This document shows, piece after piece, positions 77 through 56,510 of a DNA stretch of 64,000 nucleotides. The notes under the pieces are model-generated. The model was not told the DNA's origin, searched no databases, and saw nothing but the letters and a program-made list of their open reading frames with translations. The stretch is taken from assembly GCA_030390025.1 (NCBI GenBank), contig CM059432.1, forward strand, positions 65,598,001 through 65,662,000, read 5' to 3'. The DNA comes from Squalus acanthias (Eukaryota). The translations under genes were made by a program, and so were the position numbers. Each line of letters begins with the position of its first letter. Within the stretch, counting starts at the first letter, position 1.

Positions 77-1702
77 TGGCCCTCGACCGTGTCCGTTCTA
101 TACCGAGGATACCGAGAAACTCCAGGATGATTTGGACAGGTTGGGTGAGTGGGCAGAAGCGTGGCAGATGCAATATAACATGGATAAATGCGAGGTTATC
201 CACTTTGGTGTCAAAACAGAAAGGCAGACTATTATCTGAATGGCAATAGATTGGGAGAAGGGGAAGTGCAACGAGACCTGGGTGTCCTTGTGCACCAGTC
301 GCTGAAGGTAAGCATGCAGGTGCAGCAGGTGGTGAAGAAGGCAAATGGTATGTTGGCCTTCATAGCGAGAGGGTTTGAGTATAGGAACAGGGATGTCCTG
401 CTGCAGTTGTACAGGGCCTTGGTGAGACCACACCTTGAGTACTGTGTGCAGTTTTGGTCACCTTATCTGAGGAAGGATGTTCTTGCCATGGAAGGAATTC
501 AGCGAAGATTCACAAGGCTGATACCTGGGATGGCAGGAATGACATATGAGGAGAGATTGGGTCGATTGGGCTTATACTCGCTGGAGTATAGAAGAATGAG
601 AGGGGATCTCATCAAAACATATAAAATTCTGACAGGTCTGGACAAACTAGATGCAGGAAGAATGTTCCCGATGGTCGGAGAGTCCAGAACCGGGGTCATA
701 ATCTAAGGATAAGGGGTAAGCCATTTAGGACAGAAATGAGGAAGAATTTCTTCACCCAGAGAGTGGTGAACCTGTGTAATTCTCTACCACAGAAGGTAGT
801 TGAGGCCAAGTCATTAAATATATTCAAGAATGAGTTAGATATATTTCTTAAAGCTAAAGGTATCAAGGGATATGGGGAGAAGGCAGGTACAGGGTACTGA
901 GTTTGGATGATCAGCCATGATCTCATCGAATGGCGGAGCAGGTTCGAGGGGCCGAATAGCCTACTCCTGCTCCTATCTTCTATGTTTCTATGTTTCTTTT
1001 TCCCGCACTTCTGCTCTCACCCCTTCCCCTCCCTCCCAGAACCACGATAGGGTTCCCCTTGTCCTCACCTTTCACCCCACCAGCCCCCCCATTCAACGTA
1101 TTATCCTCCGCCATTTCCGCCACCTCCAGCGTGATCCCACCACCAAACACATCTTCCCCTCCCCTCCCCTTTCAGAATTCCAATCGGACCGCTCACTCCG
1201 TGAAACCCGTGTTCCACTCCTCAATCACCCCCAACACCCCTTCCCCTTCCCACGGCACCTTCCCGTGCAAACGCAGGAGATGCAACACCTGCCCTTTTAC
1301 CTCCTCCCTTCCCACTGTCCAGAGCCCCAAACACTCCTTCCAGATGAAACAGCGATTTACTTGTACTTCTTGCAATTTAGTATACTGTATTCGCTGCTCA
1401 CGATGCGGTCTCCTCTACATTGGGGAGACCAAACGCAGATTGGGTGACCGCTTTGCAGAACACCTCCATTCAGTCCGTAAGTGTGACCCCGAGCTTCCGG
1501 TCACCTGTCACTTTAATTCTCTGCTCTGACCTCTCCATCCTTAGCCTTTTACACTGTTCCAACAAAGCTCAACGTAAGCTCGAGGAACAGCACCTCATCT
1601 TTCGATTAGGTACTTTACAGCCTTCTGGACTCAACATCGAGTATTTCCAGCATTTTCTATTTTTATTTCCGATTTCCAGCATTCGCAGTATTTTGCTTTT
1701 GT
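77..1702 (+). mobile_element. Penelope-like retroelement 3' fragment (GIY-YIG endonuclease), split by a CR1 insertion at ~102-997
   Basis: 77-101 (ALDRVRS) joins 998+ (SRTSALTPSPPSQNHDRVPLVLTFHP). GIY-YIG and Cys motifs: CKRRRCNTC...NLVYCIRCSRCGLLYIGETKRRLGDRFAEH; C-terminus EQHLIFRLGTLQPSGLN. Frameshifted. Confidence 0.9.
102..997 (+). mobile_element. CR1 LINE, 5'-truncated (RT C-terminus plus 3' UTR)
   Basis: LQDDLDRLGEW...LYRALVRPHLEYCVQFWSP...RMRGDLI; 3' stem-loop at 936-972; (CTATGTTT)n tail. Confidence 0.95.
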
Positions 1703-10640: not shown

Positions 10641-11139
10641 CACACTAATCTTGGAATTTTTTGTTTATTTCAACTGCAATGAATAGAAATATTTTTATTT
10701 CAGTTCCCTGCTGGGTGAATTAAGTCAACAGGATTTTGTTAGCGGCAAAAAAAATCAGGATTCACCTGCAGAGATGCTTATTTTCTGCTTCTCAACTAGT
10801 TAAACAGGCAATTAACTAGTTAAGTAATGAGCCGGAATATAATCCAACCCTGGTGAGTGGGAACTATTTACTATTATGTGTAGTTAACTTCTGAGGTTTA
10901 GAAATCAGATGCAAAGGGTAAACTACAATTTAAGTTTTAAAAATTGTGCGCATAATCTTTGTGTCGTTTGTATTAAAAGTTAGATTTAAAAATTAATATC
11001 CTGGTTAGTTTTAACCTTCTTTGTACTTGTAATGATGTACTTAGGCAACCAAGCCTTGAGATTTACAATTTTCCGCAAAGGAGAAGAAGAAATTCAGCTG
11101 CACAGCACATCTGGGCTTTTAAGCAGTTTGCAGCACAGG

Positions 11140-11530
11140 TGTTTAAAGTGTCACCAAGGACAGCCCGGTTCAATTGTTTAAAGTGTCACCGAGGACAGCC
11201 CGGTTCAATTGTTTAAAGTGTCACCAAGGACAGCCCGGTTCAATTGTTTAAAGTGTCACCAAGGACAGCCCAGTTCAATTGTTTAAAGTGTCACCAAGGA
11301 CAGCCCGGTTCAATTGTTTAAAGTGTCACCAAGGACAGCCCAGTTCAATTGTTTAAAGTGTCACCAAAGACAGCCCGGTTCAGGTGTTTAAAGTGTCACC
11401 AAGGACAGCCCGGTTCAGGTGTTTAAAGTGTCACCGAGGACAGCTGTTTAAAGTGTCACCGAGGACAGCTGTTTAAAGTGTCACCGAGGACAGCTGTTTA
11501 AAGTGTCACCGAGGACAGCTGTTTAAAGTG
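11140..11530. repeat. Minisatellite: 8 x 35 bp, then 4 x 25 bp, plus a partial unit
   Basis: Unit TGTTTAAAGTGTCACCAAGGACAGCCCGGTTCAAT at 11140, 11175 ... 11385; short unit TGTTTAAAGTGTCACCGAGGACAGC at 11420-11519. Confidence 0.97.
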
Positions 11531-16420: not shown

Positions 16421-17426
16421 ATGGGTGGCGCCTTGGCTGCCTTAGATTGGACCGCGGACAAGGAGCAATATGACCAACACCAGCACTAGCAGCAGCCTGT
16501 TGTTGAGAGACCTGCAGCTGGGCAGCAGCAGAGGGGTGCAGCTCACAGGAGTCACTAACCGTGACACAGGGTGTACAGGCAGAGGCTGAGTTTCCTTGAC
16601 ATGTTGGAACAGGAGTGCTTCAGGAGGCTCAGGTTGTCACGTTACTGGTGGCAGACATCTTCAGCCTCCTAGAAGAAGACCTGCAACCCTGCTGGACCAG
16701 GTGGCTACGCGTTACCAATGGCTGTTAAAGTCACCACCACCCTCAACTTTTTTGCCTCCAGATCCTTCCAGGGCTCTGCTGGAGACATATCCAGGATCTC
16801 CCAGTTGCCAACCCACAAATGCAGAAGGCTGATGGATTGTTTGACAGGGCCGCCAATTATGTGAACTTCAGCTGCGATAATGCCAGTCAGAATGAGCAGG
16901 CGTTCGTGTTTGCATCTCTGGCTGGCTTCCCACGATTCAGGGCATCATCGACTGCATACGCGTGGCAATCCGCGCAGCCCCAGATCAACCAGGAATATTT
17001 GTGAACCGCAAGGGCTTTCACTCCATCAATGTGCAGCTGGTGTGCAATCACAGAAAGATATTTCTGCAGGTGTGCACAAGATTCCCGGGGAGGGCCATGA
17101 TGCTTTTGTCGTGTTGCAGTCCAAGCTCCCCGACATCTTTGGACCTGCAAGCACACTTAAGGGGTGGCTGCTTGGTGACAAGGGATACCCACTTCAAACT
17201 TGGCTGATGACACTCGTTAGAAACCTGACTAATGAAGCGCAACATCAGATGTGTGACCGAACAAGCCATCGGAATGCTGAAGATGCGCTTCAGGTGCCTC
17301 GACAGAGCTGGAGGCGCGCTTCAGTACACACCAGCTAGGGTCTCCAGAATAGTCATGGTGTGCTGCGCTCTGCACAACATTGCGCAGCAATGAGTTTGGA
17401 GCTGCAGGAGGAACAAGGTGCAGAAC
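16421..17426 (+). pseudogene. Harbinger DDE transposase (HARBI1-like family), multiply frameshifted
   Basis: [57 protein letters not shown]. Confidence 0.92.
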
Positions 17427-37835: not shown

Positions 37836-37949
37836 GAGCGCCAACATGGATGTGTAAAGGGTATGTCATGTCTAATGAACCAAATAAAATTTTTTGAGGA
37901 AGTAACTAAAGTAGTAGACAGGGGAATGTCTATGGATATAGTTTATATG

Positions 37950-38145
37950 ATTGAGAGGTCGCACAACACCAGGTTATAGTCCAACAGTTTTATTTGAAAT
38001 CACAAGCTTTCGGAGCTATCGATTGCTCCTTCCTCAGGTGAAGTAAATTAGATACAGAATCGCCAAAGCATATATAGATAGAAAACAAAGCATGTGTACC
38101 TTTGTCCACCCCAGTCCAACACCGGCATCTCCGCATCATGACCAC
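37950..38145. mobile_element. Penelope pseudo-LTR mini-insertion with 5' inversion and 13-bp TSD
   Basis: TATAGTTTATATG at 37937-37949 and 38146-38158; interrupts the CR1 VYMDFQKAF motif. Confidence 0.85.
38001..38042 (-). ncRNA. Minimal type I hammerhead ribozyme motif (Penelope-type)
   Basis: Minus strand: UUCAC-CUGAGGA-A-GGAGC-AAUCGAUA-GCUCC-GAAA-GC-UU-GUG. Has the CUGANGA and GAAA cores, 5-bp stem II, palindromic stem III and CAC/GUG stem I. Confidence 0.8.
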
Positions 38146-39088
38146 TATAGTTTATATGGACATAGTTTATATGGACTTCCAGAAGGCATTTGATAAGGTT
38201 CCACATAAGAGACTGTAAGCTAAAATTAAAGCTCACAGAATTGAAGGCAAATTATTGACCTGGTTAGCAGATTGGTTGGGTGGTAGAAGACAGAGAGCCG
38301 GGTTAATGGGTACATACTCTACTTGGAAGGAAGTGACTCGTGATGTCCCACAAAGATCTGTGCTGGGGCCTCAACTATTCACTGGATTTATTAATGACTT
38401 AGATAACACAATAGAGAGCCATATATCCAAGTTTCCTGATGTCACCAAGATTGGTGGTATAGTAAGTAGTGCAGACGGGAGCATAAAATTACAAAGGGAC
38501 ATTGATAGATTAAGTGAGTGGGCAAAACTGTGGCAGATAGATTTCAATGCAGGTAAGTGTGAGGTCATCCATTTTGGACCAAAAAAGGATAGATTAGAGT
38601 ATTATTTAAATGGCGAAGAGCTAAGAACAGAGGAGGTCCAAAGAGATTTAGGAGTCTATTTACATAGATCACTAAAATGTAATAGTCAGGCACTGACTGA
38701 AATATGGAAGGTTAAGAGGTGATTTGATTGAAGTTTTTAGGATTTTGAAAGGAATTGATAGGGTAGAGAGAAACTTTTTCCACTGGTGGAGGAGTCAAGG
38801 GGAGATAACCTTAAAATCAGAGCCAGGCCATTCAGGAGCGAAGTTAGGAAACACTTCTTCATGCAAAGGGTGGTAGAAGTGTGGAACCCTTCCCCCACAA
38901 AAAGCAATAGATGCTAGCTCAATTAATAATTTTAAATCTGAGATCAATAGATTTTGCTGGACAAAGATTTAAAAGGATATGAAGCCAGGGCGGGTTGATG
39001 GAGTTAAGATACAGATCAGCCATGATCTCATTGAATGGCGGAACAGGCTCAAGGGGCTGAATGGTCTACTCCTGTTCCCATGTTCCTA

Positions 39089-51312: not shown

Positions 51313-53747
51313 AGTGTTTAAGGGATGGTTTCCTAAACCAATATGTTGAGGAACCAACTCGAGGGGAGGCCATCCTGGACTGGGTGTTGTGTAATGAGGA
51401 AGGACTAATCAGCAATCTTGTGGTACGAGGCCCCCTGGGGAAGAGTGACCATAGTATGGTGGAGTTCTACATTAGGATGGAGAAGGAAACAGTTAATTCA
51501 GAGACCATGGTCCAGAACTTAAATAAGGGCAACTTTGAGGGTATGAGGCGTGAATTGGCGAGGTTAAATTGGCAAGCGATATTTAAGGGGCTATCAGTGG
51601 AAGGGCAATGGCAGACATTTAGAGATCGCATGGATGAACTACAACAATTGTACATCCCGGTCTGGCGTAAAAATAAAAAAGGGAAGGTGGCACAACCATG
51701 GCTAACAAGGGAAATCAGGGATAGTATTAAAACCAAGGAAGTTGCATACAAATTGGCCAGAAGTAGCAGCAAACCCGGGGACTGGGAGAACTTCAAAACT
51801 CAGCAGAGGAGGACGAAGGGTTTGATTAGGGCAGGGAAAATAAAATATGAAAGGAAGCTTGCAGAGAACATTAAAATGGACTGCAAAAGCTTCTATAAAT
51901 ATGTAAAAAGAAAGAGGTTAGTAAAAACAAACGTTGGTCCCCTGCAGTCGGAAACAGGGGAAGTCGTAATGGGGAACAAGGAAATGGCAGATCAATTAAA
52001 CAAGTACTTTGGTTCGGTGTTTACTGTGGAGGACACACACAACCTGCCGGAAATAAAAGGGGTCAGAGGATCTGGTAAGAGGGAGGAGCTGAGGGAAATC
52101 CTTATTAGTCGGGAAAAGGTATTGGGGAAATTGATGGGACTGAAGGCTGAAAAATCCCCAGGGCCTGATGGTCTGCATCCCAGAGTACTTAAGGAGGTGG
52201 CCTTGGAAATAGTGGATGCATTGACGATCATTTTCCAACATTCCTTAGACTCTGGATCAGTTCCGATGGAGTGGAGGGTGGCCAATGTAACCCCTCTTTT
52301 TAAAAAAGGAGGGAGGGAGAAAGCAGGGAATTACAGACCAGTCAGCCTGACATCGGTTGTGGGTAAAATGATGGAAGCAATTATTAAAGATGTCATAACA
52401 GACCATTTGGAAAGTGGCGACATGGTAGGTCCAAGTCAGCATGGATTTGTGAAAGGGAAATCATGCTTGACAAATCTTCTGGAATTTTTTGAGGATGTTT
52501 CCAATAGGGTGGACAGGGGGGAACCAGTAGATGTGGTGTATTTGGACTTTCAGAAGGCCTTCGACAAGGTCCCACACAAGAGATTGGTGAGCAAAATTAA
52601 AGCACATGGGATTGGGGGTAATGTGTTGACGTGGATTGAGAACTGGTTGGCACACAGGAAACAAAGAGTAGGAGTAAATGGATACTTTTCAGAATGGCAG
52701 GCAGTGACCAGCGGGGTACCGCAGGGTTCGGTGCTGGGACCCCAGCTGTTTACATTATATATTAATGATTTGGACGAAGGGATTAAATGTAATATCTCCA
52801 AATTTGCGGATGACACTAAATTGGGAGGCAGTGTGAACAATGAGGAGGATGCTAGGAGGCTACAGAGTGACTTGGACAGGTTGGGTGAATGGGCAAATGT
52901 ATGGCAGATGAAGTACAATGTGGATAAATGTGAGGTTATCCACTTTGGTGGTAAAAATAGACAGGCGGACTATTACCTGAATGGTGGCAGATTAGGGAAA
53001 GGGGAGGTGCAACGAGACCTGGGCGTCATGGTACATCAGTCACTGAAGGTGGGAATGCAAGTGCAGCAGGCAGTCAAGAAAGCAAACGGAATGATGGCCT
53101 TCATAGCAAGGGGATTTGAGTACAGGAGTAGGGAGGTGATGCTGCAGTTGTACAGGGCCTTGGTGAGGCCACACCTGGAGTATTGTGCGCAGTTTTGGTC
53201 TCCTAACTTAAGGAAGGACATTCTTGCTATTGAGGGAGTGCAGCGTAGGTTCACTAGATTGATTCCTGGGATGGCCGGACTGACATATCAAGAAAGATTG
53301 GGTCAACTGAACTTGTATCCTCTGGAGTTCAGAAGAATGAGGGGGGATCTTATAGAGACATTTAAAATCCTGACTGGTTTAGACAAATTAGATGCGGGCA
53401 GAATGTTCCCAATGTTAGGGAAAACTAGAACCAGGGGTCACAGTCTAAGGATTAAGGGGAAGCCATTTAAGACTGAGCTGAGGAGGAACTTCTTCACCCA
53501 GAGAGTGGTGAATCTATGGAATTCTCTTCCACAGAAGGTTGTTGAGGCCAGTTCGCTAAATATATTCAAAAGGGAGTTAGATATAATACTCACAACTAGG
53601 GGGATCAAGGGGTATGGCGAGAAAGCAGGAATGGGGTACTGAGGTAGCATGTTCAGCCATGAACGCATTGAATGGCGGTGCAGGCTCGAAGGACCGAATG
53701 GTCTACTCCTGTACCTATTTTCTATGTTTCTATGTTTCTATGTTTCT
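51313..53747 (+). mobile_element. Young CR1 LINE, 5'-truncated
   Basis: Open ORF2 to its stop, 3' stem-loop, three CTATGTTT tail units. Confidence 0.97.
51384..53642 (+). CDS. CR1 ORF2 fragment: APE C-terminus plus complete RT domain, 752 aa with no stop or frameshift
   Basis: [53 protein letters not shown]. Frame open from 51315; the endonuclease N-terminus is missing. Confidence 0.93.
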   Translation: MLCNEEGLISNLVVRGPLGKSDHSMVEFYIRMEKETVNSETMVQNLNKGNFEGMRRELARLNWQAIFKGLSVEGQWQTFRDRMDELQQLYIPVWRKNKKGKVAQPWLTREIRDSIKTKEVAYKLARSSSKPGDWENFKTQQRRTKGLIRAGKIKYERKLAENIKMDCKSFYKYVKRKRLVKTNVGPLQSETGEVVMGNKEMADQLNKYFGSVFTVEDTHNLPEIKGVRGSGKREELREILISREKVLGKLMGLKAEKSPGPDGLHPRVLKEVALEIVDALTIIFQHSLDSGSVPMEWRVANVTPLFKKGGREKAGNYRPVSLTSVVGKMMEAIIKDVITDHLESGDMVGPSQHGFVKGKSCLTNLLEFFEDVSNRVDRGEPVDVVYLDFQKAFDKVPHKRLVSKIKAHGIGGNVLTWIENWLAHRKQRVGVNGYFSEWQAVTSGVPQGSVLGPQLFTLYINDLDEGIKCNISKFADDTKLGGSVNNEEDARRLQSDLDRLGEWANVWQMKYNVDKCEVIHFGGKNRQADYYLNGGRLGKGEVQRDLGVMVHQSLKVGMQVQQAVKKANGMMAFIARGFEYRSREVMLQLYRALVRPHLEYCAQFWSPNLRKDILAIEGVQRRFTRLIPGMAGLTYQERLGQLNLYPLEFRRMRGDLIETFKILTGLDKLDAGRMFPMLGKTRTRGHSLRIKGKPFKTELRRNFFTQRVVNLWNSLPQKVVEASSLNIFKRELDIILTTRGIKGYGEKAGMGY

Positions 53748-54960: not shown

Positions 54961-55691
54961 TATCTGGAATTTTCCCAGTGCGGAGCGTGTGGGTTTAGGG
55001 GCGGGTCAGCAGAAAAAATCGCGGAAATTGCCAGTGCATCGGGAACCCGCCATCATCCCATCGACTTCAGCATTTAGCTCGGGCACGTTTCCCAGCACAC
55101 CACGGGAGAGGCGGGCGACCTCATTGAAGCACTTAAAAGCTTGTTGAGAGACCCTTAAGAGGCTTTTTAACCTTAGGGATGGCTTTAACTTCTTGAGCAT
55201 AGGATTCACGCACCTCGGGAACCTTGCCTCTGAAGGGGAGGCGGAAACTCAGTGGCCATTGTGCGAGTCCATTAAGTGACAGCTGGAAAAAACCATAAAA
55301 ACTCACATTACACCTGCTTCCTTGCCAATGGAAAGGCTCTTGCTGACTCCATTTTGTGCAGAGATTTAGTTGTCAGGAGTTTGCAGGTAATTTCTGCAAC
55401 CTCAGAGGGCATCTCACCACACTGCTAGTCACTATCAGAACATTGAGGGATTGGGCCTCTGATCTCCACTTTACTTGCTGTCTATTATATCAGTGCCACT
55501 TACGCTGTCTCACCTTGGACCTCAGAATCGGACCAAGATGAGCCCCAGCACCAACAACACCAGCCACAACAGCAGCCTTCTCCTCAACGACCTGATGCTT
55601 CACAGGAGAGAGGGGGTCAGCACAGGGCTGCAGAGCATCGGAGGCGATACCCCCAACACAGGGTATACAGGCAGAGGATGAGCTTCCTGGA

Positions 55692-56510
55692 ATGACTGAG
55701 CAGCAGTGTTTCAGGAGGCTCAGGCTATCGCTTCAGATCATTTGTAGCTTGCTGGAACAAGACCTGCTGCCCAGAGGACCTGGTGGACACACCTTACCAG
55801 TGACTGCCAAAGTCACCACTGCCCTCAATTTCTTCGCCTCAGGCTCCTACCAGGAATGTGCAGCAGAAATTTGCAGGATCTCGCAGTCAGCCACCCACAG
55901 ATGCATCACACAGGTGACCGATGCCATGTTTCACAAGTCAGCCAATTATGTCAATGTTGCCACTGATGAAGCCAGTGTTACTGAGCGGGTGCTCGGCTTT
56001 GCGGCTCTGGCTGGCTTCCCACGGGTGCAAGGCATCATCGACTGCAAACATGTGGCCATCAAGGCACCCCCACATCACCCAGGAGTGTTTGTGAACCGCA
56101 AGCGTGTCCACTCCCTCAATGTGCAGCTCGTCTGCAACCATAAAAAGATCATCATGCATGTGTGTGCCAGATTCCCTGGCAGCTGTCATGACTCTTTTGT
56201 GCTGCGCCAGTCCACCCTTCCTCAGCTCTTCACACCTCCAAACAGACTTACCCACTTGCTGCTTGGAGACAGAGGCTATCCACTGAAGATGTGGCTGATG
56301 ACACCCTTGAAGAGGCCAAGTACTGAGGCGCAGGAGCATTATAATGACAGCCAAATGTCCACCAGATGTGTCATAGAGCAAGCAATCGGCATGCAGAAGA
56401 TGCGTTTCAGATGCCTTGACAGATCTGGAAGAACCCTTCGGTACCCACCAGCCAGTGTCTCCAGAATCATCGTTGTATGCTGCGCGCTGCACAACATAGC
56501 GCAGCAGTGA
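55692..56510 (+). pseudogene. Harbinger DDE transposase core (272 aa open); N-terminus frameshifted at ~55691, acidic tail behind a TGA
   Basis: [55 protein letters not shown]. Confidence 0.93.

Follow-up and report, generated by a model that had tools for sequence, protein, structure and literature searches.

Penelope-like elements and related insertions

According to the class-level accounts of Arkhipova et al. (2013, PMC3846280) and Craig et al. (2021, PMC8557442), insertions of Penelope-like elements (PLEs) typically carry an inverted, 5'-truncated pLTR together with a tail of 30-40 bp. For rotifer PLEs the inverted pLTR is described as adjacent, with a tail at one end and a target-site duplication (TSD) (PMC3846280), and the same is reported class-wide (PMC8557442, PMC8969392). 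The origin of these inverted copies is called "undefined" in one account (PMC8557442) and ascribed to self-priming in another (PMC3846280). Cervera and De la Pena (2014, PMC4209133) noted PLE hammerheads paired on opposite strands at a distance of 100-700 bp, and in their description most metazoan PLE motifs lie alone in truncated copies, as is the case here; a single minimal motif is reported there not to cleave, and dimers to cleave at a low level. The minimal PLE hammerheads are restated in PMC6155905.

For Poseidon PAc of Anolis carolinensis, Frangieh et al. (2024, PMC11167929) describe a protein that cuts and extends both DNA strands, prefers AT-rich DNA and uses uncleaved RNA as its main substrate. 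Synthesis begins at two internal RNA start sites without homology to the target, the tail being the stretch between them, and the ribozyme is reported to cut only once protein is added. That the two start sites give rise to inverted copies is not argued in the main text of that work. In L1 twin priming, as treated by Meyer et al. (2010, PMC2837659), two inverted fragments lie within one TSD, and sequence alone is stated to be unable to separate twin from dual priming. We found no paper linking twin priming to PLEs in the open-access literature searched.

An insertion in a dead CR1-like LINE

The window, by which we mean the whole 64-kb stretch of Squalus acanthias DNA that was analysed, contains an insert of 196 bp (37950-38145) placed between 13 bases at 37937-37949 and an identical 13-mer at 38146-38158. 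The 12 final bases of the left copy are present again at 38162-38173, and this 12-mer occurs three times in the 64-kb window, always at the insertion locus. The features of the locus are as follows.

37842-37949, plus strand: left part of the RT frame of the host CR1-like LINE, ending at the interruption (translation and RT identity)
37937-37949, plus strand: left copy of the TSD, 13 bp, 85% A+T (or 12 bp, should base 38146 be part of the element)
37950-38102, minus strand: inverted arm of 153 nt, representing the 3' end of the pLTR without the tail, truncated on its 5' side (joint 37952/38101; loose ends)
38000-38041, minus strand: minimal type I hammerhead motif (both core boxes and stems; predicted cut between 38004 and 38003)
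38101-38102, no strand: internal junction, with 2 bases compatible with either arm (from the loose ends on its two sides, before 38101 and after 38102)
38101-38145, plus strand: forward arm of 45 nt, putative Penelope tail (67% A+C; the pLTR end abuts 38101)
38146-38158, plus strand: right copy of the TSD, 13 bp, an exact match to the left copy
38147-38176, plus strand: perfect 15-bp tandem duplication, giving the third copy (38162-38173) and adding five codons to the host frame
38162-39088, plus strand: right part of the host CR1-like LINE (RT frame with a stop codon; 3' end common to other copies in the window)

Both flanks translate as one RT frame, and the coordinates of a 196-bp insert with direct flanking repeats in a CR1 RT frame, first proposed from the letters alone, hold. 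Compared with the stop-free RT frame at 51315-53642, the left flank shows 58% identity over 36 aa and the right flank 60% over 151 aa; Pfam RVT_1 matches the right flank with an E-value of 9.1e-06, which falls short of the curated cutoff, and a stop codon follows soon 3' of the insert. The host is a dead LINE, which we take to be CR1-like from its RT motif, the search itself having returned RVT_1 only. The target motif is single-copy in the four other LINE copies of the window. The TSD is short and lies at an AT-rich target, and CR1 paralogs lack the insert. A longer TSD of 19 bp (37931-37949 and 38155-38173, one mismatch) was considered and rejected: its right copy has C where the paralogs have T, and it leaves 9 target-like bases unaccounted for.

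The insert holds no ORF. An ATG at 38138-38140 opens a frame across the tail end, and the codons after it run into the TSD; if the parent ORF began at this ATG, element and TSD could have up to five bases in common.

Two arms that meet at a common end of the family

Contigs from four of the 21 listed runs were placed on 37850-38270 (421 bases) at 85% likeness. X1 may be the run from which the window derives; X5 comes from a further sample of that organism, X6 from a different organism, and X16 is possibly RNA. The rows listed comprise 15 of the 191 joints and 24 of the 1050 loose ends. All four runs contain a joint that links 37952 to 38101 on opposite strands (16, 17, 2 and 8 contigs), and a second opposite-strand joint, from 37962 to 38097, is found in eight X6 contigs among the 15 joints listed. 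In the parent the hammerhead side is thus colinear with 38101 onward, and it is the copy in the window that is inverted. This confirms the inversion suggested by the first-pass annotation, whose alternative of a parent with both arms oriented as here is contradicted by the contigs of all four runs; the limits it gave to the arms (37951-38098 and 38099-38145) are corrected to 37950-38102 and 38101-38145.

The seam between the arms is clean. The pLTR end stands directly before 38101 in 60, 50 and 8 contigs, ending CTCACT, and one X5 joint has CTCAAT before 38101, which is the minus strand of 37955-37950. Behind 38102, family sequence that is absent from the window continues in 15, 20 and 2 contigs from three runs. 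The arms abut at the inversion point, and element sequence is neither lost nor doubled there. We found no palindrome at this junction and no inverted repeat joining the arms; the forward arm being the tail alone, none is formed. No contig among those listed spans the whole insert stretch, so that the window's own junctions are without independent read support. In X6 the contig depth falls almost to zero over 38045-38089; missing contig cover is no proof of anything, including the date of the insertion.

The inversion point is also a common natural 3' end of the family. Contigs leave the element there into long, mixed, AT-rich flanks, 83 of them (X1) at 37952 and 291 and 71 (X6) at 37954 and 37958, with a flank agreement of 0.41-0.44 at these exits. 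The 45 nt beyond this point appear to behave as an optional PLE tail on one end, many contigs stopping at 37952-37958 without it and others running into 38101 onward. A family 3' end near 38145 was not seen among the 24 of 1050 loose ends listed. The insert is a piece of a very abundant repeat, likely a severely shortened copy of a Penelope-like element, a label given by hammerhead and layout; the contigs placed on 37850-38270 link no PLE ORF to the family.

The layout recurs elsewhere. At least five joints among the 15 of 191 listed connect the tail, at 38101-38111, to inverted arms that end at 37999, 38004, 38005, 38008 and 38016; three of the five sit at 38101, and two organisms are represented. 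Other loci thus have the same layout with other arm lengths, though in three of the five unknown letters lie between arm and tail, and the forward arms may be longer. No second copy of the insert occurs in the 64-kb window (best other matches 14 and 13 bases), and a 24-base pattern from the arm had no match in viral contigs and none in metagenome contigs.

Several exits from the inverted arm cluster in one place. At 37997-38016, at least five arm-to-tail joints and at least three go-back joints leave the arm near the predicted hammerhead cut (between 38004 and 38003) and stem II; this pattern has two confounders, subfamily divergence beyond 38016 and the minimum length set for each side. At 38039 five contigs of an X5 loose end exit the arm at the edge of stem I and reach the tail after about 15 letters; this form is another arm-plus-tail, with an arm ending at the 5' edge of the hammerhead.

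The layout of the window copy is already published, and the copy is mostly ordinary. Like the endonuclease-positive PLE insertions described by Arkhipova et al. (2013, PMC3846280) and Craig et al. (2021, PMC8557442), it has an inverted, 5'-truncated pLTR at its 5' side, next to the forward part (opposite-strand joint in all four runs), and it shares with them the one-end tail, the flanking TSD and the hammerhead within the pLTR. It differs from the insertions in those accounts in having neither an ORF nor a forward pLTR, in its TSD of 12-13 bp instead of 8-10 bp, and in its 45-nt tail and extra 15-bp duplication.

A fixed non-autonomous family of about 196 bp, in which a small ribozyme RNA is mobilised as a unit with this inversion, seems very improbable. 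Vertebrates are reported to have non-autonomous derivatives of hammerhead PLEs, and the non-LTR retrozymes described there (bioRxiv 10.64898/2026.07.22.740005) are, as the insert is, short, non-coding, derived from a pLTR and provided with a type I hammerhead. Unlike them, the insert has no tandem units, a single hammerhead and an internal inversion; instead of tandem units each with a hammerhead, we found one motif in 64 kb and no second copy. The listed joints (15 of 191) differ in arm end, and family contigs depart from the window sequence to either side of the internal junction. The varying arm lengths speak against the earlier suggestion that the insert is its own non-autonomous family, the same tail being joined to arms with five other ends (5 of the 15 joints listed, of 191). 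The companion idea of a tiny non-coding ribozyme RNA fares no better: as family sequence goes on beyond 38102, the template exceeded the insert in length, and the inverted arm reaches 99 nt upstream of the predicted cut site, so that the template was not cleaved at the window's hammerhead. The RNA of such a copy would, moreover, have tail and hammerhead on opposite strands. Four of the five arm-to-tail joints are on single contigs with a depth of 100-276, against 2-64 for the listed CR1 pieces; depth is no copy number, and this gives a weak hint that some rearranged forms have been amplified.

A lone minimal hammerhead

The minus strand at 38041-38000 carries both core boxes and the stems of a minimal type I hammerhead, as had been read from the letters alone. 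Stem I has 4 bp (38041-38038 with 38003-38000) and is followed by the core box CUGA-N-GA (38037-38031), with G at position 7, and by an extra A (38030). Stem II has 5 bp (38029-38025 with 38016-38012) and a loop of 8 nt, and the GAAA box (38011-38008) leads into a palindromic 4-nt stem III (38008-38005). CUU precedes the predicted cut between 38004 and 38003, the UH at the cut being 38005-38004. The motif thus has stems I and II, an extra base after A9, G10.1-C11.1 and palindromic positions 15.2-16.2. These last three traits, together with the core boxes and a short stem I, are alike in the minimal type I hammerheads of metazoan PLEs as described by Cervera and De la Pena (2014, PMC4209133), from whose Schistosoma families, with 7-8 bp, the window copy differs in its stem II of 5 bp, position 7 being G here.

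The two boxes without stems match seven times in the window against 6.73 expected, which is chance level; the descriptor with stems has a single match in the 64 kb, the motif at 38041-38000. In 150 dinucleotide shuffles the loose descriptor gave three matches, the one with a palindromic stem III two, and the strictest tier (a minimum of 4 bp in stem I and 5 bp in stem II), set to the window copy's own values, gave none. The covariance-model check proposed by the first-pass annotation did not recover the motif: the four Rfam matches up to E 10 include no hammerhead family. Folding z-scores of the region are weak as well (-1.55 to +0.08). Both results are expected where stem III is not stable. 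Related contigs have U or C at position 7 and a different loop II, the remaining core bases being kept (three loose-end rows with 34, 137 and 24 contigs); no other letters at 38030-38037 beyond position 7 appear among the 40 rows listed of 42.

We predict that the lone hammerhead is inert, since it has no partner copy within 64 kb. A U at position 17 makes for poor cutting. No pile-up of molecule starts or ends, such as a sharp end at the predicted cut, was reported in the contigs placed on 37850-38270. In contrast to PAc, whose hammerhead is described as overlapping the ORF start (PMC11167929), all three frames that run through the hammerhead on its strand contain stops here.

Loop II (38023-38018, minus strand) contains its own 6-nt palindrome. 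In a computed two-strand fold (-35.3 kcal/mol) the copies pair via stem II and its loop, not via stem III; the program cannot draw a crossed dimer. The loop II palindrome might possibly serve as a second dimer contact in the subfamily of the window copy.

A proposed priming of both cut strands

The window copy resembles L1 twin priming as described by Meyer et al. (2010, PMC2837659) in that two opposed fragments of one element lie within a TSD, the inverted one starting beside the end of the forward one. The twin-priming-like geometry noticed at the outset is supported by the opposite-strand joint to a colinear parent. Unlike the L1 products of that account, the window copy shows no poly(A), no top-strand annealing and no internal deletion, and the internal site is a fixed family end here instead of being chosen by microhomology (PMC2837659). 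Between the primer end and the six RNA bases at the start site there is no Watson-Crick pair and at most one terminal G-U, so that a top-strand overhang annealing to an internal RNA site, as in L1, is not found. The event thus resembles twin priming, yet does not follow the L1 mechanism. With PAc it shares an AT-rich target without homology between primer and RNA, an AC-rich tail between two start sites and an uncleaved RNA template (Frangieh et al., 2024, PMC11167929).

We lean, with somewhat better than even confidence, to an insertion in which both cut DNA strands were primed on one uncleaved RNA, a twin priming at two start sites that would have given the flipped 153-nt arm and the forward 45-nt arm in the CR1-like LINE. 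A PLE endonuclease would have cut both strands of the AT-rich target 12-13 nt apart. The bottom-strand end may then have primed at the outer start site, which is the tail end, and 45 nt would have been copied; for the top-strand end, priming would have been at the inner site, where the tail starts, in the absence of base pairing, and 153 nt would have been copied through the hammerhead, this second priming blocking the first cDNA exactly at the tail start. Joining of the two cDNAs by a putative repair route would have followed, the 2-base overlap being plain in the sequence, and the 15-bp duplication would have come from the same break. If the two DNA ends each use a different start site of a single RNA, the cDNA of the forward arm would halt where the second begins, which leads to the observed product. 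This is a single locus, and a second RNA with a cDNA that stalls at the same boundary would leave an identical product; the tail, moreover, has 45 nt against the 30-40 published. As twin and dual priming are inseparable by sequence, our confidence is spread over four readings: priming on one RNA appears modestly probable, two RNAs unlikely, a later deletion improbable and a fixed family most improbable.

With two RNAs, one would have served each DNA strand, perhaps on a protein dimer, and structure or a bound protein at the inner start site would have halted the forward cDNA after 45 nt. We regard this dual priming as unlikely. The anole protein is predicted to dimerise, and its start sites are reported to be common to both strands (PMC11167929); fold-back copies with overlapping arms, described as typical of PLEs (PMC3846280, PMC8557442), need two passes across one and the same sequence, and one X5 joint has a forward arm that is 6 nt longer. 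Against this, the stall must hit the very base where the other arm begins, and the hairpin predicted just upstream of the stall point is weak (-5.4 kcal/mol).

A deletion after the event could have led to the same result from a normal fold-back insertion, self-primed or dual-primed, if the forward pLTR arm was lost and the inverted arm and tail remained. Self-priming has been proposed for head-to-head PLE junctions (PMC3846280), and a junction overlap of 2 bases would be compatible with it. The absence of a junction palindrome and of an inverted repeat between the arms argues against this origin, as does the demand that the deletion end exactly at the tail start, and similar joints exist at other loci. 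Long hairpins are prone to deletion, which speaks for such a loss; slippage in a hairpin would be expected to take both arms, which speaks against it. We consider such a history improbable.

A 15-bp duplication beside the TSD

The third target copy noticed at 38162 is real, the 12-mer recurring at 38162-38173. Three copies are thus present, as the term "triplicated target site" implied; they are better read as a TSD of 12-13 bp together with a tandem duplication of 15 bp. Among the 15 joints listed, eight come from CR1 paralogs and skip the insert; five of these amount to a net 224 bp (196+13+15), one to 217, and two are not reducible. As the paralogs indicate one target copy ancestrally, 38147-38176 is a derived tandem duplication of 15 bp. 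Either a 13-bp TSD with an adjacent duplication, or a TSD of 12 bp (37938-37949 and 38162-38173) with 15-16 recopied target bases, accounts for the arrangement.

Within the 64 kb no other perfect tandem duplication of 12-25 bp stands isolated, the one further case being a minisatellite, and the left edge of the 15-bp duplication falls within one base of the left edge of the TSD. This suggests one break for both, and the duplication was probably made at the same break as the insertion. It may instead have come first, by slippage between near-identical CR1 7-mers, the element landing in the first unit later; this would concern the duplication step only, and is a possibility that we hold to be real though not the favoured one. 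The 7 bases before the 15-bp unit match in six of seven positions in the empty site and in one of seven in the filled site, which fits slippage ahead of insertion, and the paralogs have T at the seventh base, so that the C of the second unit is the mark of slippage behind the second 7-mer. The uniqueness of the duplication in the 64 kb and its coincidence with the TSD edge stand against such an independent origin.

Other elements in the window

At about 1005-1650 (plus strand) the window contains a 5'-truncated remnant of another Penelope-like family, in which cysteine pairs precede a GIY-YIG motif (PF01541, E 0.0003, which does not reach the cutoff); the cysteine pattern is reminiscent of Neptune elements. 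This remnant shows no similarity to the insert and no match to the hammerhead descriptor. The frame at 51315-53642 (plus strand), 775 stop-free codons of LINE RT (RVT_1, E 1.6e-34), belongs to the best preserved copy in the window. Two DDE_Tnp_4 transposase frames at 55596-56510 (plus strand, E 1.9e-35) and 16865-17338 (plus strand, E 2.5e-06) lie in related repeats (72% over 936 bp). A minisatellite occupies 11132-11519, with a perfect 25-bp period at 11420-11530.

What the insertion may tell about Penelope-like elements

Dead scraps of this kind are very numerous, and the insert in itself is of little importance. It is valuable as a clean specimen: the host frame pins down the target precisely, and where the tail starts the two arms join without loss or overlap. 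Self-priming does not readily produce arms that share no sequence, and the clean seams suggest that both cut strands were likely primed on one RNA. Going further, we tentatively propose, as an idea still short of even confidence, that the Penelope tail would be the footprint of an obligatory two-strand priming on a single RNA, one strand at the tail end and the other at the tail start, with the second blocking the first, and that the telomerase-related PLE enzyme would have copied target DNA a second time at this break, giving the extra 15 bp. A genome-wide count of such junctions offers a cheap test between twin priming, dual priming and fold-back. If the proposal is true, forward arms that consist of the tail alone, with zero overlap, would be the direct product of this priming and a countable class, and it would explain the inverted copies of PLEs.
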